Notes: generated by a model not told the origin, from the letters alone. DNA of 64,000 nucleotides from Bdellovibrionales bacterium (GCA_965261545.1 CBDHDF010000011.1:384001-448000), one strand, 5' to 3'. Counted from the stretch's first letter, positions 37,299 to 60,946 are shown. Made by a program: numbers and translations.

Positions 37299-37545
37299 CG
37301 TGTTTAACATTTCACAAACTTACCTTGAAGAAGAGCCGTACAACCCACCTTGGCTCTTCCTCTATAAGAGAGGAGAGATAGAGTGCTCGATCTTTCTTAT
37401 GAGTCTAGGGAGCAGGGAAGTGAGAAGTGACAAAGAGTTCTGAAGAAGTTGGAAGAAGTCCAACCTTTCGGGAGCCTCAAATGAAGAATAAGAATAAAAA
37501 TAAAAAAATATATCAACCATAACTTTTTCATGAAAAGGAGCAACT

Positions 37546-38968: not shown

Positions 38969-39099
38969 ATTGAACTCCTTCTTTAAAATTTGAAATTATT
39001 TAGTTGTTAAGGTGACCAATGAGGCCAATCTGACTAAGAGGACCAGTGATTAAGGTTGAGCAATGCGACGAAGATGACTAAAAAAAGTGTCATAAAGCC

Positions 39100-40110: not shown

Positions 40111-40454
40111 TTTAATTCTCCTAAAGGTTGTTCTCTTTAGCCCTTTAGGGTGTAAAGAGAGTGGACTCATAGGGCTCCCTATGAGATTACAAATTAATGG
40201 TGGCGTTATACCCCTTGGAAATGTGAAATAGTTAAGATATTAAATACTAAAATGATAGAAGTGATGAGGCAGTATCACCTCTTACCTTCGCTTTCTCCGC
40301 TCCATAAACGTCTCTTGCCTCTGTCTCTGGCCCTGTTTCTGATTTGCCCTACCTTCTGCTTATCTACTGTCTAAGCTTCAGCTTCATCTTCAGCCTCAAC
40401 CTCAGCTTCCTTATCGGCCTCTGTTCCTACCTTCACACCGGCCCCTGCTTCTAT

Positions 40455-41683: not shown

Positions 41684-42017
41684 TTATTATTATCTTCCTA
41701 TTATTTTCCTATTCTATTCTTATTTACTTCTTCCTACCTCTTCTACTCTCTTTCTTTTTCTTTTAACTCTTATTTTATTAATCTCCTCTATTGATTTCAT
41801 TTCTCACCAATGATTCGGTTTTTCTCTTGATTTCTGGCCCCCTCTCAGCCTTCAAAAAACACACTATTTTCCATTTTCATGAATCCCCCTTGACTAGATT
41901 TGAGGATTTTTTTGCAGTACCACATGATTTCAATAGGTTACAGATTTTTTCCCCTAGTTCGAAAAAGGGGCATACAAGGGGTCTATACAAAGGGTAGGCC
42001 CATTCAATATTTGGCTT

Positions 42018-46753: not shown

Positions 46754-47376
46754 TTACTGACCTCATGGATAGTTTCATGAATGGTAATTCCGTCAACATA
46801 TAAGCCCATGGGATTCCACACTGTGGGGTTGTTCCGAATAATACGAAAAGACAAGCGGGTGGGGGCAATGAGGGGGATATTGTTCACTCTTACAATTCTG
46901 TCAAAAGAAGCTAAGGCTTGGCTTTGGGTCACAATGGGTTTTATATTAGCGACTGTTTGCTCAATTTTCTTGTTGAATTCTTTTTGGGTAAAGTCTTTTT
47001 TTATTTGGTGTCTCATCTTTTGAAGAAGCCCCTTTGTCGTGAGGGGAGAAATATTTTCAAGAGCTGAGATGGGGTTGGAATCACTCCATGTATAGCGAAG
47101 CCTGATATATTCTTCAAGGAAACGGGCAATGTCCTTTTCAGAAAGATGAATCTCTCTTTTCTCGGAGGAGTAAAACCTCTTCTCCTCTCCATTTTGAAGA
47201 ACCACCACCGGAGGGTTGGTGGACAAGTAGAATGAGAAAATTGTGAGTGAAAAACATAGGAGTCCCAATAAAACTCCCATGAGCTTGTAGAGGTAGAGCA
47301 CCTTGTTGAGGGCCACCCATTGGTTTGAGGGTTGAGTACGATTTTTTGTCACTGTTTTAATCATGGTCTTTGTCAT
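46750..47376 (-). CDS. VirB8/TraK-like protein
   Basis: Single TM, FLEEYIRLRYTW, C-terminal NPMGLYV motif. Confidence 0.7.
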   Translation of the reverse strand: MTKTMIKTVTKNRTQPSNQWVALNKVLYLYKLMGVLLGLLCFSLTIFSFYLSTNPPVVVLQNGEEKRFYSSEKREIHLSEKDIARFLEEYIRLRYTWSDSNPISALENISPLTTKGLLQKMRHQIKKDFTQKEFNKKIEQTVANIKPIVTQSQALASFDRIVRVNNIPLIAPTRLSFRIIRNNPTVWNPMGLYVDGITIHETIHEVSK

Positions 47377-48640
47377 GTTTTTCTCCTTCTTCCAAACTTG
47401 AATGGATATCCTTAGACGTTGATTTAAAATCTGATTTAGAATTTGACTCAGAGCTTGGCTTAGAGTCTGATCTAGAGTCTGGCTTAGGAGTTGATTTGGC
47501 AGTATTTTTAGGAGCCACTTTGGAAGTTTCCAGTGAAGTTTGATGCCTCCATATATTTCTTATGGGCGATAGCCATCGACTTTCTCCAAACTTGGCTGGT
47601 TTCCATGGTGAACCCGTGGACAATTCTTCGGATAACTCTTTGGTTGGCCTCAATGAGTCTTTGGAATCTCTTAATTCTGCGCCGATGCCCATATGTGAGC
47701 CGCCGAAACCTGTGACTGCGGTGAAAGTTCTAGCTGCTTTGGTCGATCGAATCGCCCTTGTCGGTCTAGTCAGTTGCCCCATTGAGCCCATGAGTGAGGA
47801 GGAGCCAGCAGGTGGTGGTGTCTCTGTGTTCGTAGATGATCCACCTAGAGTTCTTGCAAGAGCCCCTCGACCTTTTCGACTTAAGATTCCTTTCAGAGTT
47901 CCACTTAAAGCAATGGCTGGAGCCAGTGCTAAGGCGGATGCTGTTTTGGAGAGTCCGTCATTGATAAGAGACCTTGTGGTCAGAGGAGTAAACAACATGG
48001 ACAAACCAATGCAAAGGTTCATCATAATGGTGTATAAGAAGTTTTCCATATCTACCACTTGGGGATTAGTGGCTATTTTTAGAAGTATCACACCGAGGAT
48101 GGACCACATGATTTTCCATAAAACCACATTGATGAGCCCCTTGTAGAGATTCATTGCTATAAATGCAGTGTTTGCTGAAACATACATGAGTATCATTAAG
48201 GGAGAGCAGACATAAAGAACATGCCAAACAAATTGAACAAGGATATTGGCAATAAAAATACCTGCGTAAGCCACAACATAGGAGATCACACACAGGATGA
48301 ATACAATGCTTTCTCGTAGCTTGAGCCAACTCACTTCCATTTTCTGATAATTGGTTTCTAGGTGAACCAATAGATCCTTTAATTGGCCCATGGCATGTAT
48401 TTTCTGAGCAATTCCATCACCCAAGAAAGCAATTGTATTGAGACATTCTTCAAATGAAATAAGCATAATTATGGAGATCACAACCCTTTTTAGAATTTCA
48501 TGGACATTGGGGTTTTGTGATGGAATTTTAAAGAATTCTAAAATAATGGCTAAGAGGGTAAATGGAACCAAGAGAAGCCAGTAAAGCTCTCTTATATTCC
48601 CATGGATTTCTTGGCACACCTCGGATAAACCTTCAAACAC
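47357..48640 (-). CDS. VirB6/TrbL-like polytopic membrane protein
   Basis: Multiple TM helices, SPLMI motif, long low-complexity tail; operon position. Confidence 0.7.
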   Translation of the reverse strand: MFEGLSEVCQEIHGNIRELYWLLLVPFTLLAIILEFFKIPSQNPNVHEILKRVVISIIMLISFEECLNTIAFLGDGIAQKIHAMGQLKDLLVHLETNYQKMEVSWLKLRESIVFILCVISYVVAYAGIFIANILVQFVWHVLYVCSPLMILMYVSANTAFIAMNLYKGLINVVLWKIMWSILGVILLKIATNPQVVDMENFLYTIMMNLCIGLSMLFTPLTTRSLINDGLSKTASALALAPAIALSGTLKGILSRKGRGALARTLGGSSTNTETPPPAGSSSLMGSMGQLTRPTRAIRSTKAARTFTAVTGFGGSHMGIGAELRDSKDSLRPTKELSEELSTGSPWKPAKFGESRWLSPIRNIWRHQTSLETSKVAPKNTAKSTPKPDSRSDSKPSSESNSKSDFKSTSKDIHSSLEEGEKHDKDHD

Positions 48641-49368
48641 TATTTAAACCTCCGTAGTGAGAAATCAGGTTTGAGAGACTTCAAACCATTTTTCATATCT
48701 TTGTTAAATCTATTGAAAGCAACAACGCTATCTTTTCCGTACTTATTCGTCATGGCGAGATATTCACCTTGGAGTTTGAGTATCTGATTAAGAGTGTGTA
48801 AAATCTTGGCATTGCTTTCGGCCGTCATGCGCATGGCCCCCTTGGGTGAGGCCCCTCGGCTTTGCATGGAAATAATTTTTGAATTTTCCTCTTGCCTTTG
48901 GGCGTATGGCCCAATAAGCCCCACCATTTTAATGCTTTCGGCGACACTTTGGTCATGGAGCATCTGCATGGTGGATTCCATGCTGCGTGGAACTTCACCA
49001 TAGACCTTTACAATGGACTTATAGGCTCTATTAAAATCTTTCAGTCCACTTAAGATTTTGGCATCTTTGATGGGGAGTGAATGAAGCAGACCCACGGAAT
49101 TCTCTAGCCCCTCATTGATCAGTCTTAAATAGTTGTCCTTATTTTTCTCAGTTTCGAGAATCACTCTTAGTTGCTCATATCTTTTCATATTTTCTGAAAG
49201 AATGTTCGCCAAGTAGGGAACCTGTGCCCATCCAGCACCTGCATCGCCTAAGAAAGCATGGGAGCATGGAACTGCAAAGAGATGAATCCCTATGGAAAGA
49301 AGAATGGCTTTTCGGATAAAGTCTCTTGTTTGTCGGATAAAATGTCTTATTCTATTGAGTGGTTCTAT
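48640..49368 (-). pseudogene. VirB5/TrbJ-like secreted protein with a damaged 5' end (ORF-called part 48640-49212)
   Basis: An in-frame signal-peptide-like stretch (IRKAILLSIGIHLFAVPCSHA) lies upstream of 49212 with no in-frame ATG; the RBS is followed by an out-of-frame ATA. Confidence 0.55.
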
Positions 49369-52100
49369 GGGGCCTCCTTTTTGCCTTCAAAGGCAATTTT
49401 TTTAAGAATTTCTAACTTTGGTAGTTTTGGATATTTTCTTGCCATGGCTTCAATGGCAGCCTTATCAAAACCATCTGTGGTGCATATCCAGTAGCTCAAA
49501 GGGTCTGGGGTGAGCCGAATGACAGCCTTATTTTCATCTTGCATAAAAAAGAACTCACTGAAACTCCCCTTTTCAAGGGAAAGGCTTTTGATGACTTCCA
49601 CTTCGTCGTTGTTAAAGTCCATGACCTCTTGGAAATCCTTCCAGTCTATTTTCTTTTGGCGGAGAATAAAGACACTTGCTGTATTGGGAAAAATGGCATT
49701 TTTGATTTCTTGGCTAGAGAGAAAATCCTTGTAGTTTTGGCTAATACACCAAATGCCTCCATTGAACTTCCTAAAGGTGCGGTAGGCTTCCATGGCAAAG
49801 CTGAGGCCACTGGGTGTTTCAAAGAGTTTCCATGCCTCGTCGATAATGAGAAGGTAGGGAGTGGAGAGGTCACGGGCAGCTTCACTCTTTATAAAATCTG
49901 TAAAGAGGAGCAAGAAAACGTTTTGTAAATCGGGGTAGGCGTCAAGCCCCTTCGTCTCAATAGTGATAAGGTCTTTAGTGAGCTTCACATTGCTGGGACC
50001 ATCCAGCATTTGACCGTAGGCGGTGTTTCCCGTCCAAGAGTAAAGAGTTTGAGCAAAGTTTCTCATCTCTAAGACTTCATGTTCAGAGAGGACTTTTCTC
50101 AAATCTGATAAAATGGGCATTCGACCCTTGGTTTGTTCATTGTTGGCTTGCTTATGGATTTGCTCACTGGCCTGCCCATGATTTTCTTGTTCATTGTTGG
50201 TTCGCTTATTGGTTTGCTCATTGACCTGCTCACTGTTTGCTTGCTCATAGGTTTTAAAGATAGCCTCTTCGAGAAGGGCTTTTTCTCTCTTGGGAAGCCC
50301 TCTTTTTTCCTCATCCTTCAGGATGGACTCCAGCACAGCCAAGATCAGCTTCACCTTTGATGTTGTGGGCGTGGTTTGAGTCGTAGGGGTGGTCTGGTCT
50401 TCTGACGAAAGATCAAACATATTGAGCCTTATCTTTGAGTCTATGTTGAGGTTGATAAACTCACCCCCGTGGACTTCAAGCAGCCTTTGGGAAGAAGCCC
50501 CGTTGTCCACCCAAATGATTTTGGGTCTTGGAGTTTGGGTGCAAAATTGCAACATCATTTGAGAAATAGTAAAGCTCTTGCCCACGCCAGAGCCGCCAAA
50601 GATGAGGGCGTTCCAGTTGGTAAGCTCTTTGGCAAAGGGGTCCATGGAAAACAAAACTCCATATCTATTTGGAAACAAGCACACGGGTTTGCTGTGCCCC
50701 CTCCAATAGGAATAAAGGGGCATCAAGTGGGCGACATTGGAGCTTTTCATTTTTTTGGGTCTGAGCCCATGAGTGCTTCCGGGAAAAGTCATGGAAAAAG
50801 CTTCAAAACCTGGCAAGGTCTCCACCACCCCCTCAGATTGATTCATTCGCTTAAAGGCACTCAGTACCTCATCTGCTTTTTCTGTTAGCTCCTCTCTTCC
50901 CTTGCCCCAAATAATCACATTGAGATCTGTGGAGACGAGTTTTTCTGAACCCTCAAGCAGCTCTCTCATTAAATCCTCAATCTGATAGAGCTTGGACTCA
51001 GATTCTAGGTCACTGATATTTTGCGGACTTGAGGTCATGGAGTGGGCAAGCCTTCTTTGCACTTTTAACTTCTCAACCTCTGACTTTTGCCTGTGAATCT
51101 GGATATTTTGCAAAAGCCAAAAGTGGAAGGGTAGGCTTGTGAGATGATGGATCATGGCCGCATGGGTTTCTTCTTCGGGAAGGGTCTTCATTGTGATAAC
51201 TTGAAAGAAGTAGTTCCCACACTTTATACAATCCTCATAGATGCCTATATCCGTAAAGAGGATTTGGTGGGCAAGGCTTGGGGCAAAAAGGTCGTAAAAC
51301 TCTGACAAAGGCTCATGGAGGCCAAATTTTGACGAAGGGGGCTCAAGTTCCCCAAGTTCTAGTGAAGGCTCAAATTCCCCAATCCCTGACGAAGGCTCAA
51401 AGTCTTCAAGTTCCTCAATATCTGCTGGGGACTCAGTATCACCAAGATCAGAGAGACCAGAAAAGTCACCAAGGTCAGCAAGTCCGCCATGCTCCTTCCA
51501 ATGGGGAGGGCCAACCTTCTCACTGCGAGAGAGATTGAAGTATTCAAACAACAGGCCGGCCCACTGTGAACTCTCAAGTTCTACAGGGGCAAGTCCTCCA
51601 TCCTTGAGTAAAAAGAAAAGTTGCCTGCGGTTTCTTTCAAAGGTTTTCTTGTGTTCATCGTACTCTTGCTTGGAAGACTGCTGAAATTTCTCTTGAGATT
51701 TCCAAAATCCTTGGCGTTTATACTTAAGGGGCTCTCCCCGAAGAAACAAGTAAGTTTCTGGCAAGAAATACTCGCCTTGGTGCTTGTTCAAGAAATCAAT
51801 TCTTGCCTGCACTATCTCTTGTTGTGCTTTATTTGAGGTCACCGAGATTTTTTCATGCTCTTTGATGGTTTCAGAGACATGGGGAGTTAACCTGTAAAAG
51901 ACCTGGAGAGATAGACCTTCAGGAATGGAAGTCAGAAGGCTCCCCATCCTTCTATTAAAGTTGTTGACGCTCTCGGTGGAAGTGCAACTTATATCCATGC
52001 CATTGAGTTTAAATCCTGCCCCTAGGGAGCCATCGGAAAAAACCATGAGATTTTCATCAAAGTGCCAAATGGGTAGTTTATCTGCGAGAGCGTGAGTCAT
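49365..52100 (-). CDS. virB4: VirB4/TraC-family conjugative ATPase
   Basis: NALIFGGSGVGKSF, VDNGAS, LIIDEAW, RTFRKFNG...ISQ. Confidence 0.92.
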   Translation of the reverse strand: MTHALADKLPIWHFDENLMVFSDGSLGAGFKLNGMDISCTSTESVNNFNRRMGSLLTSIPEGLSLQVFYRLTPHVSETIKEHEKISVTSNKAQQEIVQARIDFLNKHQGEYFLPETYLFLRGEPLKYKRQGFWKSQEKFQQSSKQEYDEHKKTFERNRRQLFFLLKDGGLAPVELESSQWAGLLFEYFNLSRSEKVGPPHWKEHGGLADLGDFSGLSDLGDTESPADIEELEDFEPSSGIGEFEPSLELGELEPPSSKFGLHEPLSEFYDLFAPSLAHQILFTDIGIYEDCIKCGNYFFQVITMKTLPEEETHAAMIHHLTSLPFHFWLLQNIQIHRQKSEVEKLKVQRRLAHSMTSSPQNISDLESESKLYQIEDLMRELLEGSEKLVSTDLNVIIWGKGREELTEKADEVLSAFKRMNQSEGVVETLPGFEAFSMTFPGSTHGLRPKKMKSSNVAHLMPLYSYWRGHSKPVCLFPNRYGVLFSMDPFAKELTNWNALIFGGSGVGKSFTISQMMLQFCTQTPRPKIIWVDNGASSQRLLEVHGGEFINLNIDSKIRLNMFDLSSEDQTTPTTQTTPTTSKVKLILAVLESILKDEEKRGLPKREKALLEEAIFKTYEQANSEQVNEQTNKRTNNEQENHGQASEQIHKQANNEQTKGRMPILSDLRKVLSEHEVLEMRNFAQTLYSWTGNTAYGQMLDGPSNVKLTKDLITIETKGLDAYPDLQNVFLLLFTDFIKSEAARDLSTPYLLIIDEAWKLFETPSGLSFAMEAYRTFRKFNGGIWCISQNYKDFLSSQEIKNAIFPNTASVFILRQKKIDWKDFQEVMDFNNDEVEVIKSLSLEKGSFSEFFFMQDENKAVIRLTPDPLSYWICTTDGFDKAAIEAMARKYPKLPKLEILKKIAFEGKKEAP

Positions 52101-52408
52101 AGAATCCTCTTTTGTCTTTTGGGTTCAAATTTTCCTACATTGCCAGCACTATAAACCCCTGGAGTCATCTTGTAGGTTAGGAGGTGAAGGAAGTAGTTCT
52201 CAGGCTTATTTCTTTTGACGAAATACAAGACCACAGCCATCATCACGGGTAAAATGAAAACAAGGTAGGTGGCCAAGAAGGTGGAGCCAAAAAATAGATT
52301 CATGGTGGCTGCAAATAGGAGAATAAAAAGAAGATCGTGAGCCTCCATGCCCACAATCTTAAGTTTGGCATCTAGTCTTCGATGAATTCTTGAAGTCTCC
52401 AAAGCCAT
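52097..52408 (-). CDS. VirB3-like membrane protein
   Basis: Two TMs, KIVGME, immediately upstream of virB4. Confidence 0.65.
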   Translation of the reverse strand: MALETSRIHRRLDAKLKIVGMEAHDLLFILLFAATMNLFFGSTFLATYLVFILPVMMAVVLYFVKRNKPENYFLHLLTYKMTPGVYSAGNVGKFEPKRQKRIL

Positions 52409-52867
52409 TTAGTACCCCACCGCAGCTTGGAACCAGCTAATAATATGGGGAGCAAGAAAGCCCACAATACTGCATACAATCACCATGATGATTCTGCCCT
52501 TGGCGGCACCATCTCCTGTAAGGGCGAGAATCACCGCATACACAAGGCCCAAAACACTTATAAGGGGAAGTATCACGGTCATAAGCTGATTTGTGAGCCC
52601 CTTCATGCGGCTTTCAAAGCCACTTCCAAGAAGCTGAGACCACGCTGTTTCTGAGTAGTAAAGGGCCAACATCACCAAGAAAAAAATGGCGACCCACTTC
52701 AAAGAAGCCCTTAAGGTTGTGAATTGATTCATTTTGTCCACTTCGTTCGCCACGTTTGCCTTGTTCGTCTCGTTCACCTTGCTTACTTCGTTCGCCTCGT
52801 TTACTTTGCTCATCTCGCCCGCTTTGTTCATATTGCTCATCTCGTTTACCTTACTCATCTTGCTCAC
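52409..52867 (-). CDS. TrbC/VirB2-like pilin
   Basis: Signal-like segment plus two hydrophobic helices; upstream of virB3/virB4; repetitive N-terminus. Confidence 0.7.
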   Translation of the reverse strand: MSKMSKVNEMSNMNKAGEMSKVNEANEVSKVNETNKANVANEVDKMNQFTTLRASLKWVAIFFLVMLALYYSETAWSQLLGSGFESRMKGLTNQLMTVILPLISVLGLVYAVILALTGDGAAKGRIIMVIVCSIVGFLAPHIISWFQAAVGY

Positions 52868-53264
52868 CTTCTGGGCTTCCCATAATAAGAGACCTACTAT
52901 AAGGACCGATATTCATAATCACATCCCCCTGGGTAAGAGCATTTGAGTGGCCTTCACCCACTGACTTGCGTGTCTTAAATTTTCCATTCTTTTTGATGAC
53001 CACCTCCACTCGATAGCGAGTTCGATCTCCCGTGGATAAAATGGGCTTGAGGTAGTATTGATTCTCTGGGTGTATATCAATTTTCAGTCGATATTCCCCA
53101 AAGTTATGCTCATGAAAAGCAACTCCTGCTGGGAAATGACGCTTTTCTTCTTTATCAAACCACCACAATTGAAATACTTTGGATTTCTTATCTCCTTGAT
53201 ATTCTTTAATTTTCTTATTTTTTTGATCTTCATGAGATGATTGAAAGTTCTTTGTTTTTTTCAT
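52851..53264 (-). CDS. Hypothetical protein (leading gene of the transfer operon)
   Basis: GGAGG RBS; small beta-rich basic protein. Confidence 0.65.
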   Translation of the reverse strand: MKKTKNFQSSHEDQKNKKIKEYQGDKKSKVFQLWWFDKEEKRHFPAGVAFHEHNFGEYRLKIDIHPENQYYLKPILSTGDRTRYRVEVVIKKNGKFKTRKSVGEGHSNALTQGDVIMNIGPYSRSLIMGSPEGEQDE

Positions 53265-53366
53265 GATTTATCCTCCAGAATTTGTTTTCAGAATCATCGA
53301 TTCTGATTCGGGTTCTTAGTTCTTATAAATCGTTGATATTTTTCCCATTCAACATAAATACATTCC

Positions 53367-53642
53367 CTAATTGTTCAGTTCATCCAGCATAGATTCCTTC
53401 ATTAGCTCTAAAGACTCATTAATAAGGTGATCTGTTTGAGACCAATCCAGATGAAGCACCATAGATATTTCTAAAATAGAAAAGTGATACCAAAATCGAA
53501 GTATAATAGAAATTTTATGTTTCTCTGGTAACCTTGCCACATGTTTCCTTACCCACTTTCTTCCATATTCAATAAGTTTCTTTTCATAAATGAATTGCTT
53601 CAAAAATAAATCCTCGCTTTTATAGGTTTGTAAGTCTTCCAT
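53367..53642 (-). CDS. Sigma-70 region 4-like HTH protein
   Basis: VARLPEKHKISIILRFW..FSILEISMVL. Confidence 0.65.
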   Translation of the reverse strand: MEDLQTYKSEDLFLKQFIYEKKLIEYGRKWVRKHVARLPEKHKISIILRFWYHFSILEISMVLHLDWSQTDHLINESLELMKESMLDELNN

Positions 53643-53645
53643 CCA

Positions 53646-54056
53646 CTAAGAAATGCGACGTAAATCTCCTTTCACGGGGTGTTGATGTTCATAACCACGA
53701 CCACCGCCATCACTATGACTATAGACATGCTGTTTATCCTCATGAATTTGGAGTTTTTGAGCCATATTAGCCTCTTTAGTCTTCTGAGCCTTCTTAAGTC
53801 CTTGAGACTGAGATTTGAGATGCTGACTTTTTGGAGGCTGAGACTTCGCATTCTCGTCATTGAGTACATCGTCAACTTCCTTGAGCATTTTTTCTAAATC
53901 AGCACACATGGGGTAGTAGTAGGATTGGCTTCTCAAAGCTTCCTCCTGGCTATCCCTAGGCTGCCAATTGCATGAATAGCAAATCGTGTAGGATTCTCTT
54001 TCTTCCAAACCTAAGCATTTGCACCTGGGGCATTGATTCAACGTATTCGTCTTCAT
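53646..54056 (-). CDS. Zinc-ribbon hypothetical protein
   Basis: CPRC...CYSC. Confidence 0.6.
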   Translation of the reverse strand: MKTNTLNQCPRCKCLGLEERESYTICYSCNWQPRDSQEEALRSQSYYYPMCADLEKMLKEVDDVLNDENAKSQPPKSQHLKSQSQGLKKAQKTKEANMAQKLQIHEDKQHVYSHSDGGGRGYEHQHPVKGDLRRIS

Positions 54057-54366
54057 ATTCGTATCCTTTCTTGATATTGATCTTGTAAATGCTCATATCC
54101 AGAGGATCGGAGCATACGTTTTGTTTATTGTCCTTAATCATTTCTGTTATGTAGTTTCTGACTCACCATCCTCTATCAGTTCAAAGGAAATCACAAAATG
54201 GCCAAATTTATACTTTCCCGTTCCTAAAGAGACAAAAATTGTCAGTCGTTACATTTAATTATTTTCTTTAATTTAAATTCTTTTCTTCAATTTCTTGGGT
54301 CGATAGAAATCAAATTCCAAACCTCCAAAATAATTAATTTAAAATTTCACCCCTCACGTTTATAGT

Positions 54367-54382
54367 TGCGAAATCTATGCCA
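54367..54382 (-). promoter_or_regulatory. sigma54 -24/-12 promoter facing the conjugative operon
   Basis: Minus strand TGGCATAGATTTCGCA: exact GG-N10-GC spacing, close to consensus TGGCAC-N5-TTGCW. Confidence 0.75.
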
Positions 54383-54399
54383 ACTTTATTTGTGAGATA

Positions 54400-54412
54400 T
54401 TTCAATGACTTA
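54400..54412 (+). promoter_or_regulatory. Putative IHF site upstream of the sigma54 promoter
   Basis: TTTCAATGACTTA vs consensus WATCAANNNNTTR (one mismatch), in the typical position. Confidence 0.45.
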
Positions 54413-54664
54413 GAGAGAAATAGAGTCGAATGACGAAAAGGAAAAAACTTTTTTAAGTACGAAATAAAGTACATAAAAAAAGAATTTATATTTATTTAAT
54501 ATCTTATAAATATATAGTAATGATTGATCAGATTATTTTTTAAGAAATTTATCTTGAAATAAATCATCTTTTATTGTATAATAATTTGTACATCATTTGA
54601 AAAATACTCCACAAAGAATTGAGATCAAGTTACGAAAGACATGAAAGAATAACTGGAGAGACAA

Positions 54665-56038
54665 TTGAGTGAAATATTGAAAGATCCATTAAAAAGCAAA
54701 GTCGTCAGTGTGCATGTTATAGAGGACAGCAAATTAGACTCTGAACTCATTCAAGATCTCATCAAAGTAGAACTAAGAAAGTGTGGATTGACCCCCAAGG
54801 TTTCAGCCACATTCAAAGAAAAAAGCTCTTATAGTGCTTTAAATCAAAATAACTATGATATTGTGGTTTTTGATATTGATCTAGATCGAAGAATGGCAGG
54901 GATTGACCTTCTTGGTATGTTTACTAAAAAGGTACAGTTTCCGATCATCTCCTCTTGCCGTGAGTCAGATGATATCGTAAAAAAAGCTTACAGTCTAGGT
55001 TGTGAGCACTTTTTAAACAAGCCTATCAAGCAGTCAAAGATTGCCCATCTGGTCGATCAATATACAAAGCAAATAAACTCCAAGAGCATCTTGCGAGTTA
55101 TAAAATCAAGATACATGACCCAAGATGAAGAGACCCTCAGTGAGCTTAATAAAGTCACTTCATCGAAAAATGCTCATTTATTTGGACCCACAGGGGTAGG
55201 CAAACAAATCGTCGCTGAACTTATTCATCATATACATTATGGCAACTCAAACCCCTTTGTTGAAAAGAACTGTTCATCTATCACAGAGTCTCTTGCGGAG
55301 TCCTTCCTTTTCGGCCATGAAAAGGGAGCCTTCACAGGTGCCAACAACCAAAGAAAGGGTATCTTTGAGCTTGCCAAGGGAGGCACCGTCTTCTTAGATG
55401 AAATCGATAAGACATCAAAGTCTTTTCAAGCCAAGTTATTAAAAGTTATAGAGAAAAAGGAAATTCAAAGGGTTGGATCTGAAAAATCAACACCTGTTGA
55501 CTTCTCGCTGGTCACAGCAAGTAGTACAGACCTTAATTTCCTTGTGGAAAACGATAAATTCTTACCTGATCTTTGGGAAAGGCTTCAGGTGGAGGTCATT
55601 CACTTGAAACCTCTGAAAGAACGTCCCTTGGATATAGAGCTACAAATGCAGAATTTCATTAGGCTTCATGAGTCAGGAAGACTGTTTGTCATCTCTGAAG
55701 AAGCCCATAAGTTTTTGATGAGTTACCACTGGCCAGGAAATACAAGGGAATTAAAAAACGTTGTGGACAGCTTACAAAGGAAGAATATCAAGATTCTTGA
55801 ACTCAAAGACCTTAAATTCTTACAAAAAAAATCCATCAGACAGCAATATGGCCTCGTCAATCAACAAATACTTCAGGCCATGGAACAAAATGGACTCAAA
55901 AATGTCGTCAATCAAATATGCCGGGAAGCAGTTCATCATTTTTTCACTCAAAATGATGGGAAAAGAAGAATCACAATGAGGCAGCTTGAAATTAGCTCAG
56001 ATACTTTATACAGACACTTAAAAGAAAATATGGGGTAA
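54665..56038 (+). CDS. sigma54-dependent response regulator (REC-AAA+-HTH, NtrC family)
   Basis: IED, VVFDIDL phospho-Asp, LNKP; GPTGVGK, FGHEKGAFTGA, FLDEID, WPGNTREL; C-terminal HTH. Confidence 0.95.
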   Translation: MSEILKDPLKSKVVSVHVIEDSKLDSELIQDLIKVELRKCGLTPKVSATFKEKSSYSALNQNNYDIVVFDIDLDRRMAGIDLLGMFTKKVQFPIISSCRESDDIVKKAYSLGCEHFLNKPIKQSKIAHLVDQYTKQINSKSILRVIKSRYMTQDEETLSELNKVTSSKNAHLFGPTGVGKQIVAELIHHIHYGNSNPFVEKNCSSITESLAESFLFGHEKGAFTGANNQRKGIFELAKGGTVFLDEIDKTSKSFQAKLLKVIEKKEIQRVGSEKSTPVDFSLVTASSTDLNFLVENDKFLPDLWERLQVEVIHLKPLKERPLDIELQMQNFIRLHESGRLFVISEEAHKFLMSYHWPGNTRELKNVVDSLQRKNIKILELKDLKFLQKKSIRQQYGLVNQQILQAMEQNGLKNVVNQICREAVHHFFTQNDGKRRITMRQLEISSDTLYRHLKENMG

Positions 56039-56041
56039 AAA

Positions 56042-56260
56042 ATGAATTTAACAAAAGAAGAAATAAAGCACGATTTGAAAAGAAATATAAGTTCTATTTT
56101 ATCTGGAACAACAATGATAATGAATAAGATTCCTAAGATAGATATTTATATTCGAGAAACAATAGAAGAAATAGAAAAGCAATGTGAACAAACATTTAAA
56201 CTGTTAGACATTTTCACGGAAAGTAAAGATGAAAATAAGAAAAAGCCAAAGGAGGTATAA
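56042..56260 (+). CDS. Small stand-alone HisKA/DHp-like protein
   Basis: IKHDLKRNISSILS resembles an H-box followed by a second amphipathic helix. Confidence 0.55.
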   Translation: MNLTKEEIKHDLKRNISSILSGTTMIMNKIPKIDIYIRETIEEIEKQCEQTFKLLDIFTESKDENKKKPKEV

Positions 56261-56261
56261 A

Positions 56262-56582
56262 ATGAGAAAAATATGGACCATACTTGTTGCTATGCTCGGA
56301 ATGTCGAGTAATGCATCTTCCGCATACTCTGGTTGCTATGATGAAGCCATGGAAGTTTCAACAGAAAGCAACCTTGAAGTGAGTCTAGAACAAAGTGCAG
56401 AAGAAGATTTTGATGAACTTGATAGAATCATGGATTTATACCCACATGCTAGTATTGATGAAAAAGTTGGAATGAGCTTTAAAGCACATAGAATAGCGGA
56501 TCGTCTTGAGCGTCAAGGTTTTGATGTTGCTGATTCTATGTCTCAATCATCAAGAACATGTGACTATTGTGTGAAACCATAA
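56262..56582 (+). CDS. Secreted peptide, candidate RiPP/pheromone precursor
   Basis: GGAGG RBS; signal-peptide-like N-terminus (MRKIWTILVAMLGMSSNASSA), acidic middle, C-terminal SMSQSSRTCDYCVKP. Confidence 0.65.
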   Translation: MRKIWTILVAMLGMSSNASSAYSGCYDEAMEVSTESNLEVSLEQSAEEDFDELDRIMDLYPHASIDEKVGMSFKAHRIADRLERQGFDVADSMSQSSRTCDYCVKP

Positions 56583-56627
56583 CATTCAATCATTATTGAT
56601 GGCATAAGAAAGGATATAAATTCAAGA

Positions 56628-58184
56628 ATGAAAAATAAATTTATTTATATTATTTTATTTATATTCATTATTGTTATAACTTATAGTTTCATTCGTGAGC
56701 AAAGGAATAAGTCAATGTTGATTCAGACAAATTTAATAAGTTTTGAACCAGAAGACACAATGGACCCCACAAGACTCAGGTTTGTCCAAGAATATTTTGT
56801 GCTTGATAACGTCACGGCAAAGCTCACTCAAGTGGGAGACGATGGTGAATATAAAAATGATCTTGCTGAGCATATTAGTTTCTCTGATGATAAACTCACC
56901 ATAGATGTTCAATTAAAGAATGATGCTAGATTTAGTGATGGAAGCCCTATTTTAGCTCAAGATGTGGCTCAATCATTCAAAAGATCCATATTATGGGGAG
57001 TGCCCCATATTGATCTAAAAAATCTTTGGATAGGAGCCGATCAGCTTAAATCTATAAATGAAGATATACCAGGCATTGAGGTTTTATCCAACAAAGAGTT
57101 GCGACTCAAGCTTATCAAACCCACTAAAGAAGTTCTTTTTTTTCTCACAATAACCGACCTTGCCATACTCCATAAGAGTCAATATACAAAGACTCATTTA
57201 AAAGTTTCTGACTGGGAAAGAGTAACTTCTGGTGCTTATAGAATAGGCTACACCAATGAAGGTAGAGTCATGCTCATTTCTAATAAGAGTTCTCATAATT
57301 TTAAAGAGGCCATGCCTCAGAAAGTCGTTTTCAATGGGTATAAGAACGCCAATGTGATTCGACAAATTGAAGAAAAGAGCTTGGACTTTGGAATGTTGAC
57401 TCTCAGTGAATATTTTCCTAATGTAGAAAAAATTGAATCCTCCAAGGATTTTGATATTGTGAGCAATAAGACAGATGGTGTCGTTCATATTGTTCTCAAT
57501 GCCGCATCAGGGCCATTTGAAAATATTGAGAATCGTCAATGGATCCAGAAAAAAATGATGGAAACCTACAAAATTGATGAAAAAGACTCTTCTGTTTTAA
57601 CCAAAGCTCTTCAGTTTTTTCTCCCAAACTCCAAGGGTCATAAAGATGGTGCTGACGTTCTAAGCATTCTCAAAGACATTAATACTTCAAATATTCCTGA
57701 AGAATTAAAAAAAGGAATCACCATAAAAACTCTAGAAGGAATGAAGTATTTTTTACCGGATAATATGGAAATAAAATTATCTCAAACCTTAGGCATTCCA
57801 GTAAATTTGGAAATCAATATTCCAAAAAAAGAGTATTTTCAATCCATTGACAAAGAAAGAACTTTTGATGCCACTATTATGGCTATCTCCATGGACTATA
57901 AAGTTCTCAATGAGGCTCTCAATCTTCAATATTTATCTGAAAATAGTCCCCTTATCGATCCCACAGGGAAAATAAAAGAACTTCTTAAGTCCTATCAAGG
58001 TGAAGATGATCTTGAGAAAGAAAGTGAAATCATTAATAAGATATTGAATCAAATGATTTACGATTCAGAATCAATTCCCATTTTTTATTTTGCATCCCCA
58101 TTTCTTATAAAAAAAGATACCATTCAAAGCTCAAGTGTGAATTTTCATGAACCCATTAAATTTCACAAAATGGTGATGAAATGA
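56628..58184 (+). CDS. Family-5 (OppA/DppA-like) extracellular solute-binding protein, orphan
   Basis: N-terminal TM; MDP, DLAEHISFSDDKLT...LKNDARFSDGSPILAQDVAQSF, TSGAYRI. Confidence 0.88.
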   Translation: MKNKFIYIILFIFIIVITYSFIREQRNKSMLIQTNLISFEPEDTMDPTRLRFVQEYFVLDNVTAKLTQVGDDGEYKNDLAEHISFSDDKLTIDVQLKNDARFSDGSPILAQDVAQSFKRSILWGVPHIDLKNLWIGADQLKSINEDIPGIEVLSNKELRLKLIKPTKEVLFFLTITDLAILHKSQYTKTHLKVSDWERVTSGAYRIGYTNEGRVMLISNKSSHNFKEAMPQKVVFNGYKNANVIRQIEEKSLDFGMLTLSEYFPNVEKIESSKDFDIVSNKTDGVVHIVLNAASGPFENIENRQWIQKKMMETYKIDEKDSSVLTKALQFFLPNSKGHKDGADVLSILKDINTSNIPEELKKGITIKTLEGMKYFLPDNMEIKLSQTLGIPVNLEINIPKKEYFQSIDKERTFDATIMAISMDYKVLNEALNLQYLSENSPLIDPTGKIKELLKSYQGEDDLEKESEIINKILNQMIYDSESIPIFYFASPFLIKKDTIQSSSVNFHEPIKFHKMVMK

Positions 58185-59191
58185 AGCACGCTCAATCCTT
58201 AAATATTTTAAAGAATGTAATAAATTATTTTCAATCACTACCAGATCATCAATTAAAAGTGAAGGATATTAGTTCCGAGCATTTTACTCTTCCTTGCATG
58301 TTCTCTGTATCTGTTAACCACCGAGGAAATCAAATGCAAGGGTTCGGTCAATCTGAATCTAAAGATAAGGCTATTTTTATTGCTTTTATGGAAATTATTG
58401 AAAGAATCCTAATACCAAAGCCTAAAGACTTGACCTACTCACAGAAATATCTTTTTTTCTCTATCAGAAAAAATTATGAGGATCTTTTAAAGTCATTTCC
58501 TAGATCGAGAAATTGGGTTGAAGGCTCTTCCAATGGTTTTGCCATTCATTCGAGTAGAAAAATGGCTCAAAAATCAGCTCTTGACGAACTTATTGAGCGG
58601 CATGTTGTACTTAAAGCTCTTGTTTCTCAGTTTTCTCCGGCCAAGGTGTTAGCACCTAAAATACTTACCCATGGGAGCTATGTGATTCCCTCCGAGATGA
58701 CCTATGAGTTTTATGCTTGGTTAGGACCTTTGGGCAGACATGTGGTTCTTTTTAAATGCCAGATGAATTCAAAGGTGATCTATGGGTTTGGATGTGAGAA
58801 GAGTCTAGAAAGAGCCAAGGAGAAGGCTTTTTTTGAAGCTAGCTCTAGGATTATCGCACTCCACCGATCTCAGAATCCTTCCTTTGTAGTTCTCAATACG
58901 AGTAAAAATTTCCTTTATCATTGGTATGAGGAGACTGCCTGGACAGGAGGGTTTCTTAAAAAAGCCTCCCATGACATGCCCTCTATAGATCACCACCTTT
59001 CATACAGTGATTTTTGGTTTGGTGAACCTCCAAAAAATGAATTTCTCCACCAACTGGGCCTCCATGTGGTCAAGGCTGTTTCCCCAAAGATTCAGCCTCT
59101 CTTTGCAGGACACTGGAAGGCCAAATATATGAACCCCGAAGCTCTAGGGAATGACTACAGCTTTCCAGAAGACATGCATATGATTGGGTAA
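58181..59191 (+). CDS. YcaO-family protein
   Basis: GFG.....AIFIAFMEIIER; SSNGFAIHS....AQKSALDELIERH; GFGC....ERAKEKAFFE; GLHVVKAVSPKIQPL, the ordered YcaO motifs. Confidence 0.82.
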   Translation: MKHAQSLNILKNVINYFQSLPDHQLKVKDISSEHFTLPCMFSVSVNHRGNQMQGFGQSESKDKAIFIAFMEIIERILIPKPKDLTYSQKYLFFSIRKNYEDLLKSFPRSRNWVEGSSNGFAIHSSRKMAQKSALDELIERHVVLKALVSQFSPAKVLAPKILTHGSYVIPSEMTYEFYAWLGPLGRHVVLFKCQMNSKVIYGFGCEKSLERAKEKAFFEASSRIIALHRSQNPSFVVLNTSKNFLYHWYEETAWTGGFLKKASHDMPSIDHHLSYSDFWFGEPPKNEFLHQLGLHVVKAVSPKIQPLFAGHWKAKYMNPEALGNDYSFPEDMHMIG

Positions 59192-59197
59192 ATTGAT

Positions 59198-60946
59198 ATG
59201 AAAAATCGATCCATACGAATCTCTATTTTATTGGCAGCCACCATGAGTCTTTTGGCTCTTGCCACTGTGATGCTGATATTCTTATCAAAGCACGAGGTGG
59301 AAAGAATTCAAGCCAATACTCAATCCCTGGTGCGTGAGCAAATAGAACTCACAGTTAAGAAATTAGATATCTATAGAGTGGTCAATCAAATATCATATAT
59401 TCTCAATATCACTTTCAATCTGGATCGTGTGAATGGAGTCAATATCTTTGATTCCAAATGCAACTTAGTGGATAAGCAACCTGTTAATTTTAAAATCCCA
59501 TGGGACTGTAAGAGCCCTCACCCTGATTCTATGGTTCTTTATAAATCTCAAACCTCGATTTCTGACTCTTCAGGAGCCCCCAAATATATATTGGCTCGCC
59601 TCAAAGATGAGCCCCATATTCTCTTGAATCACCATAGCTTGAAGGTTCTCGTCATATCATTAGTTTTGATTCTTATCACTTTACTTTGCTTGAACTTTTT
59701 AATGAAAAAACATATTCTAAGGCCCATTGACGATTTGGTAAGAATCATTAGAAAACCTGGCGCCCTTGAGAGGAATAGTCAGAAACAAAAAAAGCTCCCC
59801 TTGGAACTAAGAGAAATTTATAATGATGTTTTGTCTCGTGACGAAATCATCCAGCAGAATAAAATTGAACTACTCAAAAGAAATGAAATGGAAACACGAA
59901 GCCATTTAAGTGAGCAAGTCGCCCATGATATCAGGTCACCCATTATGATTCTTAGAGACTACCACTTAAATCACTTAAATTTACATAGAAACGAGGATAC
60001 AAAAGAAAGCGTATACCTCAATGCCATTAACGATCTGGACCTCCTCACCAAGCAATTGATTGAAGACTCTAGTGAGTATGCAAAAAATGTCAATCTCGTG
60101 GGCTTAATGGATGCCCTCGTCGACATGAAAGAAGTTGAATTTCAACAAGGGCCTAAATCTAAGATATTGTTGAATCCTCAGTCTAAGAATTTGAAGATTA
60201 AAACCAATCCCACAAAATTAAAATTTGTTCTTTCCAATATTATCAACAATGCAAGGGAGGCTTCTAAGCATGATGATCCTTGTGAGATTCAAATCAAGTT
60301 GACAAGAGGGGGGCCAGACGCCTTCATTGAAATTGAAGATAACGGGAAAGGTATCAAAAAATCAGACCTCAAGAGAGTTTTTTCCCGAGGGGTGAGCATA
60401 GACAAGCCTGGAGGCAACGGCTGGGGACTTAGTGATGCTAAAAAATTTATTGAAAGCCAAGATGGGACCATCGAGATAGATTCAGAACTCGACAAGGGAA
60501 CCACTGTTAGAATAAAGCTCCCCATATTTCTCTCAAATTTTCAATCTCGTGGGCAGGCTCCCTTTGACCATGTTTTGGTGGAAGACTACAAGCTCAGCCA
60601 ACTTCTATGGCTTGGAAAGGCCGATAGCAAGAAGCTCAACTTTGCAGCCTTCTCCTCACCCTCAGAATTTTTAGAGAATATGGAACTGGTGAGTCCCAAT
60701 GCCACCTTGTATATCGACTCTCACTTTCCCGATTTTCCCATGCGTGGCGAAGAATGGGCCAAGGAGCTTTACAATAAGCACGGATTCAAAGAAATATATA
60801 TGTGCTCTACATCCTCCATCGACATCACCGACATGCCATGGGTCAGAGGGTGCGTTGCCAAGCATAAGCCTTTTGAGATTGTCACTACAACCTCTGTTTC
60901 TTTAACATCTCATGTAAAGAAAACGTTCCCGTGGAGTACCCTATGA
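59198..60946 (+). CDS. Membrane sensor histidine kinase with degenerate C-terminal receiver-like domain
   Basis: Two TMs around a periplasmic domain; VAHDIRSP, NIINNAREA, DNGKGI, GNGWGLS. Confidence 0.93.
   Translation: MKNRSIRISILLAATMSLLALATVMLIFLSKHEVERIQANTQSLVREQIELTVKKLDIYRVVNQISYILNITFNLDRVNGVNIFDSKCNLVDKQPVNFKIPWDCKSPHPDSMVLYKSQTSISDSSGAPKYILARLKDEPHILLNHHSLKVLVISLVLILITLLCLNFLMKKHILRPIDDLVRIIRKPGALERNSQKQKKLPLELREIYNDVLSRDEIIQQNKIELLKRNEMETRSHLSEQVAHDIRSPIMILRDYHLNHLNLHRNEDTKESVYLNAINDLDLLTKQLIEDSSEYAKNVNLVGLMDALVDMKEVEFQQGPKSKILLNPQSKNLKIKTNPTKLKFVLSNIINNAREASKHDDPCEIQIKLTRGGPDAFIEIEDNGKGIKKSDLKRVFSRGVSIDKPGGNGWGLSDAKKFIESQDGTIEIDSELDKGTTVRIKLPIFLSNFQSRGQAPFDHVLVEDYKLSQLLWLGKADSKKLNFAAFSSPSEFLENMELVSPNATLYIDSHFPDFPMRGEEWAKELYNKHGFKEIYMCSTSSIDITDMPWVRGCVAKHKPFEIVTTTSVSLTSHVKKTFPWSTL

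Follow-up and report, generated by a model that had tools for sequence, protein, structure and literature searches.

Six open reading frames follow one another on the plus strand from 54665 to 60946 of the window (the whole 64,000-nucleotide stretch of DNA that was analyzed), at the positions assigned to them in a first-pass annotation. Their spacing is operon-like, the genes for the binding protein and the YcaO overlapping by 4 nt and those for the YcaO and the kinase lying 6 nt apart, and the six-gene operon proposed in that annotation stands as described; nor is the arrangement a matter of chance; it recurs in other genomes. The host is a Bacteriovoracaceae-like bacterium. The genes of this cassette and the features around it are as follows.

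54665..56038, plus strand: NtrC-type response regulator (receiver, sigma-54 AAA+ domain with GAFTGA, C-terminal HTH region)
56042..56260, plus strand: HisKA-like mini protein of 72 aa, candidate phosphotransfer protein, motif KHDLKRNISSIL
56262..56582, plus strand: precursor candidate of 106 aa (Sec-type signal, acidic pro-region, motif DRLERQGF, tail SMSQSSRTCDYCVKP)
56628..58184, plus strand: orphan family-5 solute-binding protein (SBP_bac_5; N-terminal membrane anchor or signal)
58181..59191, plus strand: short stand-alone YcaO of 336 aa (PF02624; without signal peptide)
59198..60946, plus strand: hybrid membrane histidine kinase (HATPase_c and C-terminal receiver-like domain)
42836..54056, minus strand: type IV secretion gene set, divergent from and upstream of the cassette (Pfam, NCBIfam)
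35815..60876: one of two genomic copies of a mobile element (second copy G000:C2:11010-35593)
54367..54382, minus strand: sigma-54-type -24/-12 element TGGCATAGATTTCGCA, oriented toward the secretion operon
54554..54582, plus strand: sigma-70-type promoter TTGAAA-17-TATAAT (11/12; consensus match only), before the regulator gene

The protein encoded at 58181, which had been taken for a YcaO, does pass the profile (PF02624, 46.6 bits, Pfam cut-off 25.7) and has the YcaO fold: its AlphaFold model (pLDDT 88, pTM 0.89) matches LynD, MJ1094, McbD and E. coli YcaO at a Foldseek probability of 1.0 (structures 4v1v, 6pe3, 6gri, 6ci7 and 4q86; TMq 0.5-0.6). Residues E71, E74, E136, E139, R140 and E219 are invariant in an alignment of cassette YcaOs (30/30), and these Glu and Arg residues line up with ExxER in E. 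coli YcaO and in MJ1094, the motifs mE..ER and ELIERHV falling on ALGEYFER and SEVFERYV of the E. coli protein; the Glu motifs presumably bind ATP and Mg, a role that we take over from work on E. coli YcaO. Only four YcaO-domain genes exist in this genome, all of them cassette copies. Among the cassette-type homologues scanned with Pfam, 22 of 26 pass the PF02624 cut-off, and L021, L034 and L036 gave no match to this family. L032 and L038 are classical YcaOs.

This cassette shares with azoline-forming YcaO systems (microcin B17 McbBCD, cyanobactin LynD/TruD and the stand-alone bottromycin YcaOs) the fold, the ATP/Mg motifs and a Cys or Ser in a C-terminal core that follows a conserved recognition motif. 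It differs from them in that the enzyme is only 336 aa long, carries no extra domain, is joined by no E1-like or RRE partner, either here or in homologous cassettes, and scores 36.6 bits with the TOMM cyclodehydratase model of SagD type (TIGR03604), below the NCBIfam cut-off of 219.25; it differs also in the Sec signal on the precursor and in the context of signaling genes. Within the genome, which is 96.8% complete, there was no match to the FMN dehydrogenase of SagB type (TIGR03605) or to the TfuA partner (PF07812) of thioamide-forming YcaOs, and Pfam recognized no protease or exporter in the cassette. TOMM cyclodehydratases have a proline-rich extreme C-terminus, PxPxP; the window protein ends in DMHMIG, and many of its relatives in PHP(I/V/L)G or VHPVA.

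The 106-aa protein matched no Pfam or NCBIfam family, and its longest ORF, starting at 56229, would give 117 aa. Small proteins of this kind have the layout of a RiPP precursor, with a conserved recognition region, then a variable core with modifiable residues, and a gene near that of the enzyme. A signal-like hydrophobic N-terminus is present in 27 of the 28, and 23 carry a Cys within the last 15 residues (absent there in 5/28), Cys making up 30/420 residues of the tails versus 26/1674 elsewhere. The tail Cys stands behind a conserved motif, L..(R/K).G.(I/V/F), at +13 or +14 from it in the window, L022-L026, L034 and L049; its column is kept in 16 of the 17 sequences of alignment A4, the exception having Ser. 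Ser takes the place of the tail Cys in two cases, the paralogue p2 and L053, and the L053 Ser is as far from the motif Gly as the Cys is elsewhere. Compared with the window protein, the close variant P0162 is identical at 10/19 positions in the tail and at 54/62 in the pro-region, with both Cys kept; on its contig the identities are 80% for the binding protein, 78% for the YcaO and 79% for the peptide, so that the binding protein is no more diverged. The small proteins do not fit the Phr N-terminal model (best E 0.047, on one relative). Co-folding of YcaO and peptide scored 0.00, 0.65 and 0.60 in its runs (median 0.60; best control 0.01), with a partner pLDDT of 54-64 and an agreement between runs of at least 0% of contacts. 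In the calibration the mark was reached by 116/157 solved complexes and 2/215 mismatches, and 18 of the 157 complexes, together with both passing mismatches, lie at 0.60 or below; the co-fold lends weak support to a predicted YcaO-peptide pairing.

The binding protein matches SBP_bac_5 at 83 bits (Pfam cut-off 32), and its homologues carry lipoboxes. It had been called an orphan, rightly so, since Pfam reveals no ABC permease or ATPase gene in the window. Among proteins of solved structure it comes closest to AapF, OppA and YejA, which bind peptides. A parallel is MbnE, the family-5 protein for uptake of the RiPP methanobactin, where an OppA-family periplasmic protein recognizes a ribosomal peptide bearing heterocycles; MbnE, however, serves the uptake of a copper chelator, whereas in this cassette the partner of the binding protein is a kinase, and a transporter is missing.

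In the kinase (HATPase_c, 71 bits in Pfam; H-box AHDIRSP) two transmembrane helices flank a periplasmic part of about 118 aa. Its C-terminal domain, for which Pfam makes no receiver call, aligns as a family (alignment A2, with D13 and D57 invariant) to the regulator receivers (alignment A3, with invariant receiver Asp residues) at an hhalign probability of 95% and E 3.8e-8. The regulator has Response_reg, Sigma54_activat (167 bits) and AAA lid domains in Pfam, NtrC and LuxO NCBIfam alignments reach its residue 454, and rpoN is present in the genome. In the earlier proposal the kinase phosphorylates a sigma-54 activator; because the receiver at its C-terminus makes this a hybrid kinase, a phosphorelay is likelier than direct transfer. 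The 72-aa protein belongs to no Pfam family and does not resemble the kinase of its cassette in BLAST; the nearest language-model atlas clusters are stand-alone HisKA proteins of 66-75 aa (score 0.97), and its His aligns with that of a 71-aa counterpart in L007 (E 9e-4). It occurs only in window-type and L007 cassettes, hybrid kinases being found in other cassettes as well.

These signaling genes recall LuxP/LuxQ-LuxU-LuxO of Vibrio, in which a periplasmic binding protein is likewise combined with a hybrid kinase, with phosphotransfer and with an NtrC-type sigma-54 activator. LuxO and LuxQ models match partially, far below their equivalog cut-offs (185.7 versus 800 and 48 versus 1200, respectively). 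Unlike the Vibrio system, this cassette has a family-5 binding protein and a candidate phosphotransfer protein that is HisKA-like, not Hpt, and its presumed ligand is a peptide that it makes itself.

In a blastn comparison of the window with the genome it comes from, the element that carries the cassette shows up in two copies, with 85-98% identity from block to block. Their homology stops within the kinase gene, right after the receiver's KHKPF. The element's secretion set comprises an FtsK/TraB-like ATPase, TrbI/VirB10, CagX/VirB9, VirB4/TraC, a TraL/VirB3-like protein, a TrbC/VirB2 pilin and small head genes, one of which encodes a 91-aa protein resembling sigma-70 region 4; the same head genes adjoin the cassette at other loci. 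No relaxase or integrase was recognized by Pfam or NCBIfam, and no terminal repeats of the element were found. The element is likely conjugative, as had been claimed: the secretion genes, the ATPase and the two genome copies speak for it, and the failure to recognize a relaxase or integrase against it.

The site at 54367..54382 has counterparts in the two diverged paralogue cassettes of this genome, p1 and p2, where TGGCAAGAAACATGCA and TGGCAAGAAGTATGCA occur at the same place and in the same direction. Sigma-54-like sites precede the secretion head operon in the window, p1, p2, L025 and L021, and the cassette itself in L022-L025 and L033; 9/23 of such sites are intergenic, versus 8.7% of bases. 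L007, the closest full homologue, has no such site at 9/11 or better. The predicted sigma-54-type promoters stand where a signaling model needs them.

The cassette is a family spread over the phylum and is not peculiar to this element. Its core (small secreted protein, binding protein, short YcaO and kinase) was found at about 29 loci, 57 of 301 genomes having matched, and three distinct cassette types, p1 and p2 included, coexist in this genome. Genes for the small protein, SBP_bac_5, short YcaO and HATPase_c kinase are adjacent in L003, L005, L007, L008 and L022-L031, and also in L033-L035, L037, L040, L047-L051 and L053, as they are in p1 and p2. Homologous cassettes keep the peptide gene: it adjoins the binding-protein gene in 28 of the 29 loci with the region in view, no small ORF being seen at L051. 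With this result and those for the YcaO profile and fold, the tail Cys and the sigma-54-type promoters, the tests by which the first-pass annotation could be refuted in silico all turned out in its favor. In the synteny search that it had suggested the cassette recurs, with type IV secretion genes in view at just 13/29 loci. Between p1 and p2, identity is 54% for the peptide, 64% for the binding protein, 74% for the YcaO, 80% for the kinase and 86% for the regulator, the first two having diverged more than the other three.

We propose, at a probability of roughly 0.45, that the cassette is a self-contained peptide signaling module carried by a type IV secretion element. The 106-aa protein would be synthesized with its Sec signal, and the stand-alone YcaO, an ATP-dependent cytoplasmic enzyme, would recognize the L..(R/K).G.(I/V/F) motif before export and cyclodehydrate the Cys (Ser in some relatives) some 13-14 residues downstream to a thiazoline or oxazoline; as there is no dehydrogenase, the ring would remain an azoline. 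Sec export and then protease trimming would release a C-terminal peptide, to be bound by the membrane-anchored family-5 protein, which would modulate the periplasmic sensor of the hybrid kinase. Phosphate would pass from the kinase His to the Asp of its receiver and on to the NtrC-type regulator, possibly via the 72-aa HisKA-like protein. The regulator would act at sigma-54 promoters before the secretion operon, turning the transfer genes on, and in some relatives before the cassette itself, which would amount to autoinduction. The sequences themselves show the gene content, the folds, the conservation of catalytic motifs, synteny and tail residue, and the promoter-like sites; substrate, chemistry, ligand, direction of regulation and the role of the signal in counting carriers are what we infer here, and the peptide may be modified, bound by the binding protein and used as a pheromone.

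Parts of such a module are familiar. ComQXPA of Bacillus subtilis and AgrBDCA of Staphylococcus make peptide pheromones modified by a dedicated enzyme and, like this cassette, join precursor, modifying enzyme, membrane histidine kinase and response regulator in one operon, the variable part of the precursor setting specificity. The enzyme there is a prenyltransferase or a thiolactone-forming protease, whereas here it is a YcaO, with a Sec-signal precursor, an interposed periplasmic binding protein, a sigma-54 activator as output, and a diderm host of the Bacteriovoracaceae phylum. Transfer of Enterococcus plasmids (PrgZ/TraC) and of ICEBs1 (PhrI-RapI) is under peptide control; as here, a secreted peptide is encoded or sensed by a mobile element and an OppA-family binding protein takes part, and Phr precursors also bear a Sec signal, the signaling peptide coming from their C-terminus. 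Those peptides, however, are unmodified, imported via Opp permeases and read by cytoplasmic receptors, whereas this cassette has no permease and a kinase read-out.

Several observations count against the proposed module. RiPP substrates of cytoplasmic ATP-dependent enzymes do not usually carry a Sec signal, and the exit of the peptide from a diderm cell is not accounted for; to these are added the absence of RRE or E1-like partner, protease and exporter from the cassette, the low TIGR03604 score, the weak co-fold with its one run at 0.00, the five small proteins without tail Cys, L051 without a small ORF, L007 without a sigma-54-like site, secretion genes in view at fewer than half of the loci, the binding protein of the P0162 contig, and the narrow distribution of the 72-aa protein.

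In an alternative reading the binding protein and kinase sense a peptide from outside, such as a prey-derived or cell-wall peptide, with the YcaO acting on something other than the small protein, itself an unrelated periplasmic accessory. Many different peptides are ligands of family-5 proteins, and the closest relatives with solved structures are general peptide binders; YcaOs of the E. coli type have a non-RiPP role, and the missing leader-binding partner and the co-fold result also fit. This explanation is nonetheless unlikely, given that the small gene adjoins the binding-protein gene almost throughout, that its product has the conserved motif and the Cys or Ser tail residue, that YcaO occurs nowhere else in this genome, and that the P0162 tail diverges faster than its pro-region.

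Most characterized azoline RiPPs are toxins or antibiotics, and the product could be mainly a bacteriocin-like antimicrobial azoline peptide, the sensing genes serving autoinduction or self-protection as in lantibiotic clusters and the closeness of secretion genes reflecting carriage on a mobile element only. Sigma-54-like sites before the cassette itself, and secretion genes out of view at 16/29 loci, would agree with this. We consider it quite improbable, however: the cassette has no immunity or export genes, just one or two modifiable residues are conserved, and sites in the window, p1, p2, L025 and L021 face the secretion operon. Very unlikely is a whole-protein role, in which the small protein of about 80 aa is itself ligand or periplasmic co-sensor, its Cys serving a disulfide or metal binding and the YcaO acting as a regulatory ATPase, for although the mature part, at about 60-150 aa, is long and in part conserved and several members have further Cys, a single Cys in L023, L031 and L005 makes an internal disulfide impossible there, Ser for Cys in p2 and L053 fits a heterocyclization nucleophile and not a disulfide or thiolate ligand, and the partner pLDDT in the co-fold was low.

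We found no printed description of this architecture, and a modified secreted peptide that a binding protein and a kinase sense together would add a new type to bacterial cell-to-cell signals. The signaling module may extend to something broader, which we put forward as a tentative and rather doubtful possibility: private azoline-peptide pheromones across the phylum, each secretion element having its own precursor, stand-alone YcaO, receptor and kinase with which to count cells bearing the same element and to set its transfer genes via sigma-54. If this is true, YcaO chemistry would for the first time have a part in signaling, a RiPP would for the first time be seen to leave by Sec once modified in the cytoplasm, and these diderm bacteria would have their first peptide quorum signal, with three separate channels in this genome alone.

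Our main finding is a six-gene cassette that we read, with a probability of roughly 0.45, as a peptide signalling system in which a modified peptide would act on a binding protein and a kinase, with output through sigma-54. The observations cover the genes and their synteny, the folds and motifs, the conserved tail and the promoter-like sites. ORF listing, translation and searches with Pfam and NCBIfam bear out the set of six co-directional genes at 54665-60946 proposed in the first-pass annotation; they are listed here in order, together with a promoter-like element.

First gene, plus strand: NtrC-type response regulator (Pfam Response_reg, Sigma54_activat at 167 bits, and AAA lid; GAFTGA is seen in the sequence)
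Second gene, plus strand: 72-aa protein following the regulator gene, with no Pfam or NCBIfam family
Third gene, plus strand, start at 56262 (second Met): small protein of 106 aa, with no Pfam or NCBIfam family
Fourth gene, plus strand: binding protein (Pfam SBP_bac_5, 83 bits for a cut-off of 32)
Fifth gene, plus strand: the 58181 protein, a YcaO (Pfam, 46.6 bits for a cut-off of 25.7, so that it passes the profile proposed for it)
Sixth and last gene, plus strand: histidine kinase (Pfam HATPase_c)
54382..54367, minus strand: sigma-54-type element TGGCATAGATTTCGCA, facing the secretion operon

The cassette belongs to a conserved family. A word-indexed protein search returned 18 relatives of the window YcaO, and a profile built from 17 of them reached 2245 cluster representatives at E <= 0.001, of which 444 remain at <= 1e-10 and 68 at <= 1e-30; most have 310-340 aa. 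Six contigs from the profile search, three of them labelled as Bacteriovoracaceae MAGs, have a family-5 binding-protein gene directly 5' of the YcaO gene in every case, that of locus L004 being known by its last 43 residues only (contig end). A kinase gene lies 3' of the YcaO gene in L005, L006/L007, L008 and L004, and upstream on the opposite strand in L003; the whole window layout, divergent secretion genes included, is repeated in L006/L007. When 76 neighbour proteins were scanned with Pfam, binding protein, YcaO and kinase were confirmed together in L003, L005, L007, L008, L022-L031, L033 and L035. Pfam gave no match for the binding protein of L029 and L037 or for the YcaO-like protein of L034, and the kinase of L040 is cut off by the contig end. 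We left out L032 and L038, which have classical YcaOs of 431-441 aa (in L038 with a nitroreductase), and L052 and L054, which have no binding protein; of the doubtful L036 and L039, the latter was not counted as family and the former stays among the counted loci. L047 and L048 each have a tandem pair of binding-protein genes (504 and 488 aa; 503 and 483 aa) separating the small-protein gene from the YcaO gene. Upstream of the L037 cassette, positions 2393-6095 hold a long run of evenly spaced repeats, visible as identical short peptide strings across several frames, that looks like a CRISPR array.

The genome of the window, G000, has two further, strongly diverged cassettes (p1 and p2), each comprising regulator, small secreted protein, binding protein, YcaO and kinase and each adjoining secretion-head genes. 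A YcaO match was found in 19 genomes among 61 relatives, and at E <= 1e-5 in 57 of 301 genomes sampled across the phylum. The best matches outside G000 come from another family of the phylum (E 2.6e-76 in genome G282 and 6.3e-67 in G302), the best one within the same family reaching 2.2e-15; this is a sign of horizontal spread. Database names ('ABC transporter substrate-binding protein' for the binding proteins, 'hypothetical protein' for the YcaO) ignore the cassette context, which amounts to a curation gap.

The sensing parts are a binding protein and a kinase. The window binding protein has a hydrophobic anchor and its relatives have lipoboxes; among solved proteins its sequence comes nearest to AapF, OppA and YejA, all of them peptide binders, and a Pfam scan found no ABC permease or ATPase gene within the window. 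In the kinase, two membrane helices flank a periplasmic stretch of about 118 aa, and the last 130 residues form a receiver-like domain that Pfam does not name. Asp is invariant at both acidic positions of this domain in an alignment of ten kinase homologues, which matches the regulator receivers with a profile-profile probability of 95% (E 3.8e-8). The domain is missing from kinases of the p1/p2, L026-L031 and L035 types; those of the two paralogue cassettes (L041 and L042, at G000:C11:472001-486000 and 222001-236000) have, besides lacking it, a long His-rich insert (for example HDHSDHTNHHSHHKGH) in the ATPase domain. The 72-aa protein contains an H-box-like KHDLKRNISSIL; the language-model clusters closest to it consist of stand-alone HisKA proteins (66-75 aa), and it aligns His to His with its L007 counterpart (E 9e-4); BLAST detected no likeness to the cassette's own kinase. 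Only cassettes of the window type and L007 have it, and a phosphotransfer step for it is therefore a guess. The binding-protein and YcaO genes overlap by 4 nt, and the kinase gene follows the YcaO gene after 6 nt. It is unlikely that these parts sense an outside ligand and that the YcaO acts elsewhere: the four YcaO-domain genes of G000 are all in cassette copies.

Under the peptide signalling reading, the YcaO would be the modifying enzyme. The AlphaFold model of the window protein (pLDDT 88, pTM 0.89) matches, with probability 1.0, the folds of LynD, MJ1094, McbD and the YcaO proteins of M. kandleri and E. coli, and the mE..ER and ELIERHV motifs of the family, which are the ATP/Mg ligands, align with their equivalents in E. 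coli YcaO and MJ1094. Residues E71, E74, G119, E136, E139, R140 and E219 are kept in all 30 cassette YcaOs, and R75 in 29 of the 30. ATP-dependent enzymes of this kind are necessarily cytoplasmic, and the window YcaO has no signal peptide. Pfam recognised no E1-like or RRE partner in any cassette, in the window or at the homologous loci, G000 contains no match to TfuA or to a SagB-type dehydrogenase, and the TIGR03604 score is far under its cut-off; on these sequence criteria, the protein is therefore a member of the YcaO superfamily but of none of its described functional subfamilies. From model and motifs, the predicted enzyme looks active and looks able to work alone.

The small protein is the candidate substrate. 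Read from the second Met (56262), its 106 aa end in SMSQSSRTCDYCVKP, as the first-pass annotation had it, and the peptide gene on whose presence in homologous cassettes that annotation had staked its proposal is kept: a small ORF lies directly 5' of the binding-protein gene at 28 of the 29 loci with that region in view (23 loci plus five of six further ones; none was seen in L051). A simple hydrophobic-run test found a signal-like N-terminus in all of these small proteins except that of L028 (27/28), and in Pfam and NCBIfam scans neither the 23 small proteins examined nor the mini proteins exceeded any cut-off. Cys occurs among the last 15 residues in 23 of the 28 and among the last 12 in 22, with a frequency of 30/420 tail residues versus 26/1674 elsewhere; in L023, L031 and L005 the single Cys of the protein is the tail Cys. 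In an alignment of 17 small proteins, the signal is followed by an acidic middle that varies, by the motif L..(R/K/E).G.(I/V/F) and by a column occupied by Cys in 16 of the 17; only p2 departs from this, with Ser at the position of the Cys in its sister p1. Thirteen residues past the motif Gly there is Ser in L053 and Cys in L022, L023, L025, L026, L034 and L049; Cys is at 14 in L024 and, as the first Cys, in the window protein. Since Cys is replaceable by Ser, a nucleophile for cyclodehydration fits, and a disulfide or metal ligand does not. Three less fitting tails have Ser or Thr and no Cys: L028 and L030 end in WTEL(E/D)GDV.KK, and L033 in APSSIGMSAGK.

Close variants illustrate how the tail changes. 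In the protein database, P0161 has a tail identical to that of the window protein, and P0162 keeps 54/62 positions of the pro-region versus 10/19 of the tail, with both Cys retained. Genome G026 has two cassettes with the unlike tails ..TTMGGSICW and ..VMGDRTICL, and G000 has three tail types. Between p1 and p2, the peptide (54% identity) and the binding protein (64%) are the most diverged, followed by YcaO (74%), kinase (80%) and regulator (86%). Co-divergence was rejected for the P0162 contig, where the binding protein is 80% identical and has diverged no further than the YcaO. That the product is bacteriocin-like, with autoinduction, appears more doubtful than an outside ligand. Co-folding of the YcaO with peptide residues 24-106 gave 0.00, 0.65 and 0.60 in three runs (median 0.60; best control 0.01), with a partner pLDDT of at least 54 and run agreement of at least 0% of contacts. 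Calibration had 116 of 157 solved complexes and 2 of 215 mismatches reaching the mark, just 18 of the 157 and both passing mismatches doing so at 0.60 or under; the models give weak support to a YcaO-peptide complex. By its sequence features, the small protein thus behaves like a candidate RiPP precursor. That the entire protein is a periplasmic ligand is the least probable alternative.

The cassette is associated with secretion genes and with a mobile unit. Upstream, on the opposite strand, Pfam and NCBIfam identify a type IV secretion set of VirB4/TraC, TraL/VirB3-like, TrbC-type pilin, TrbI, CagX/VirB9 and an FtsK/TraB-like ATPase, and type IV secretion genes are in view at 13 of 29 mapped loci. 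Among the head genes of the operon, positions 53367-53642 encode a 91-aa protein like ECF sigma factor region 4, with counterparts at the paralogue cassettes. A second copy of window 35815-60876 lies at G000:C2:11010-35593 (85-98% identity); homology ends within the kinase gene, directly past the last conserved motif, and the cassette is thus the terminal module of a mobile unit. No relaxase or integrase was recognised in the window with Pfam and NCBIfam, and no terminal or direct repeats were found at the element ends. Pherotype divergence between the two copies was rejected, as their peptides differ by one residue (E35D) and their binding proteins are identical.

The remainder of the window consists mostly of insertion sequences, each many-copy in the genome. 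Their load is extreme in window 1-35700 and genome-wide; a 714-nt unit (3580-4293) and a 2.15-kb unit (4294-6446) have dozens of copies each, on most of the 11 contigs, at >99% identity. The duplicated element has a Mom-family protein (PF25680, 45 bits; 35709-36719) at its left edge. Just beyond the element, 60931-63291 holds genes like ZorA (MotA_ExbB; NF033915, 73 bits for a cut-off of 100) and ZorB/MotB, then an ORF of 241+ aa without a family, and may be a Zorya-type defence locus. At 11483-17763, a TIR-domain protein precedes a type I restriction-modification set of HsdM, a nucleotidyltransferase substrate-binding protein, an HsdS-nucleotidyltransferase fusion, RhuM and the N-terminal piece only of HsdR.

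Promoter-like sites are found ahead of secretion operons and of cassettes. G000 has rpoN, and p1 and p2 have elements similar to the sigma-54-type element of the window in the same place and direction. Over 14 loci, sigma-54-like elements at 9/11 or better precede the secretion head genes in the window, p1, p2, L025 and L021, and the first cassette gene in L022, L023, L024, L025 and L033; L007 has none at this threshold. Nine of 23 elements are intergenic versus 8.7% of bases (binomial p about 8e-5, which is overstated as the loci are kin). Upstream of the regulator gene there is a TTGAAA-17-TATAAT match, and a 12-nt palindrome at 54449-54480, the best among many weak repeats of the AT-rich intergenic region, is a weak candidate for an activator site.

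The chemistry and physiology that we infer for peptide signalling would be as follows. After translation of the precursor, the YcaO would recognise the conserved motif and cyclodehydrate the downstream Cys ahead of Sec export; signal peptidase and proteases would free a C-terminal azoline peptide, which the anchored binding protein would bind, modulating the hybrid kinase. Phosphate would pass, perhaps via the mini HisKA protein, to the NtrC-type regulator, which would act at the secretion operon's sigma-54 promoters and, in certain relatives, at those of the cassette as well. ComQXPA and Agr have a like logic of enzyme, precursor, kinase and regulator, but the cassette differs in enzyme class; LuxPQ-LuxU-LuxO likewise combines binding protein, hybrid kinase, phosphotransfer and sigma-54 activator, but the cassette proteins score far under the cut-offs of the LuxO and LuxQ models. 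Enterococcus plasmids resemble it in peptide control of transfer and an OppA-family protein, the cassette being without a permease, and ICEBs1 in peptide control of transfer, a Sec-exported precursor and a C-terminal signal. The cassette is a member of none of these systems. Full-text literature, subscription journals excepted, searched for YcaO beside a kinase or binding protein, quorum sensing, pheromone, type IV secretion and Bdellovibrio, yielded no description of the architecture; passages of one paper place signalling genes near some Bacteroidales RiPP precursors (PMC10352776).

The cassette would be a further form of a known kind, the peptide pheromone systems, and a bolder reading would make it a new class. 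If the reading is true, YcaO enzymes would gain a signalling role, and a minimal YcaO of 320-340 aa without an E1-like partner would be defined. Peptide quorum sensing has so far been largely a Gram-positive trait; it would extend to a diderm phylum that includes predatory bacteria, where a mobile element would govern its own transfer machinery by a self-made modified peptide. The family, with 444 clusters at E <= 1e-10 and highly variable tails, would then offer a clean test system for the co-divergence of signal and receptor.
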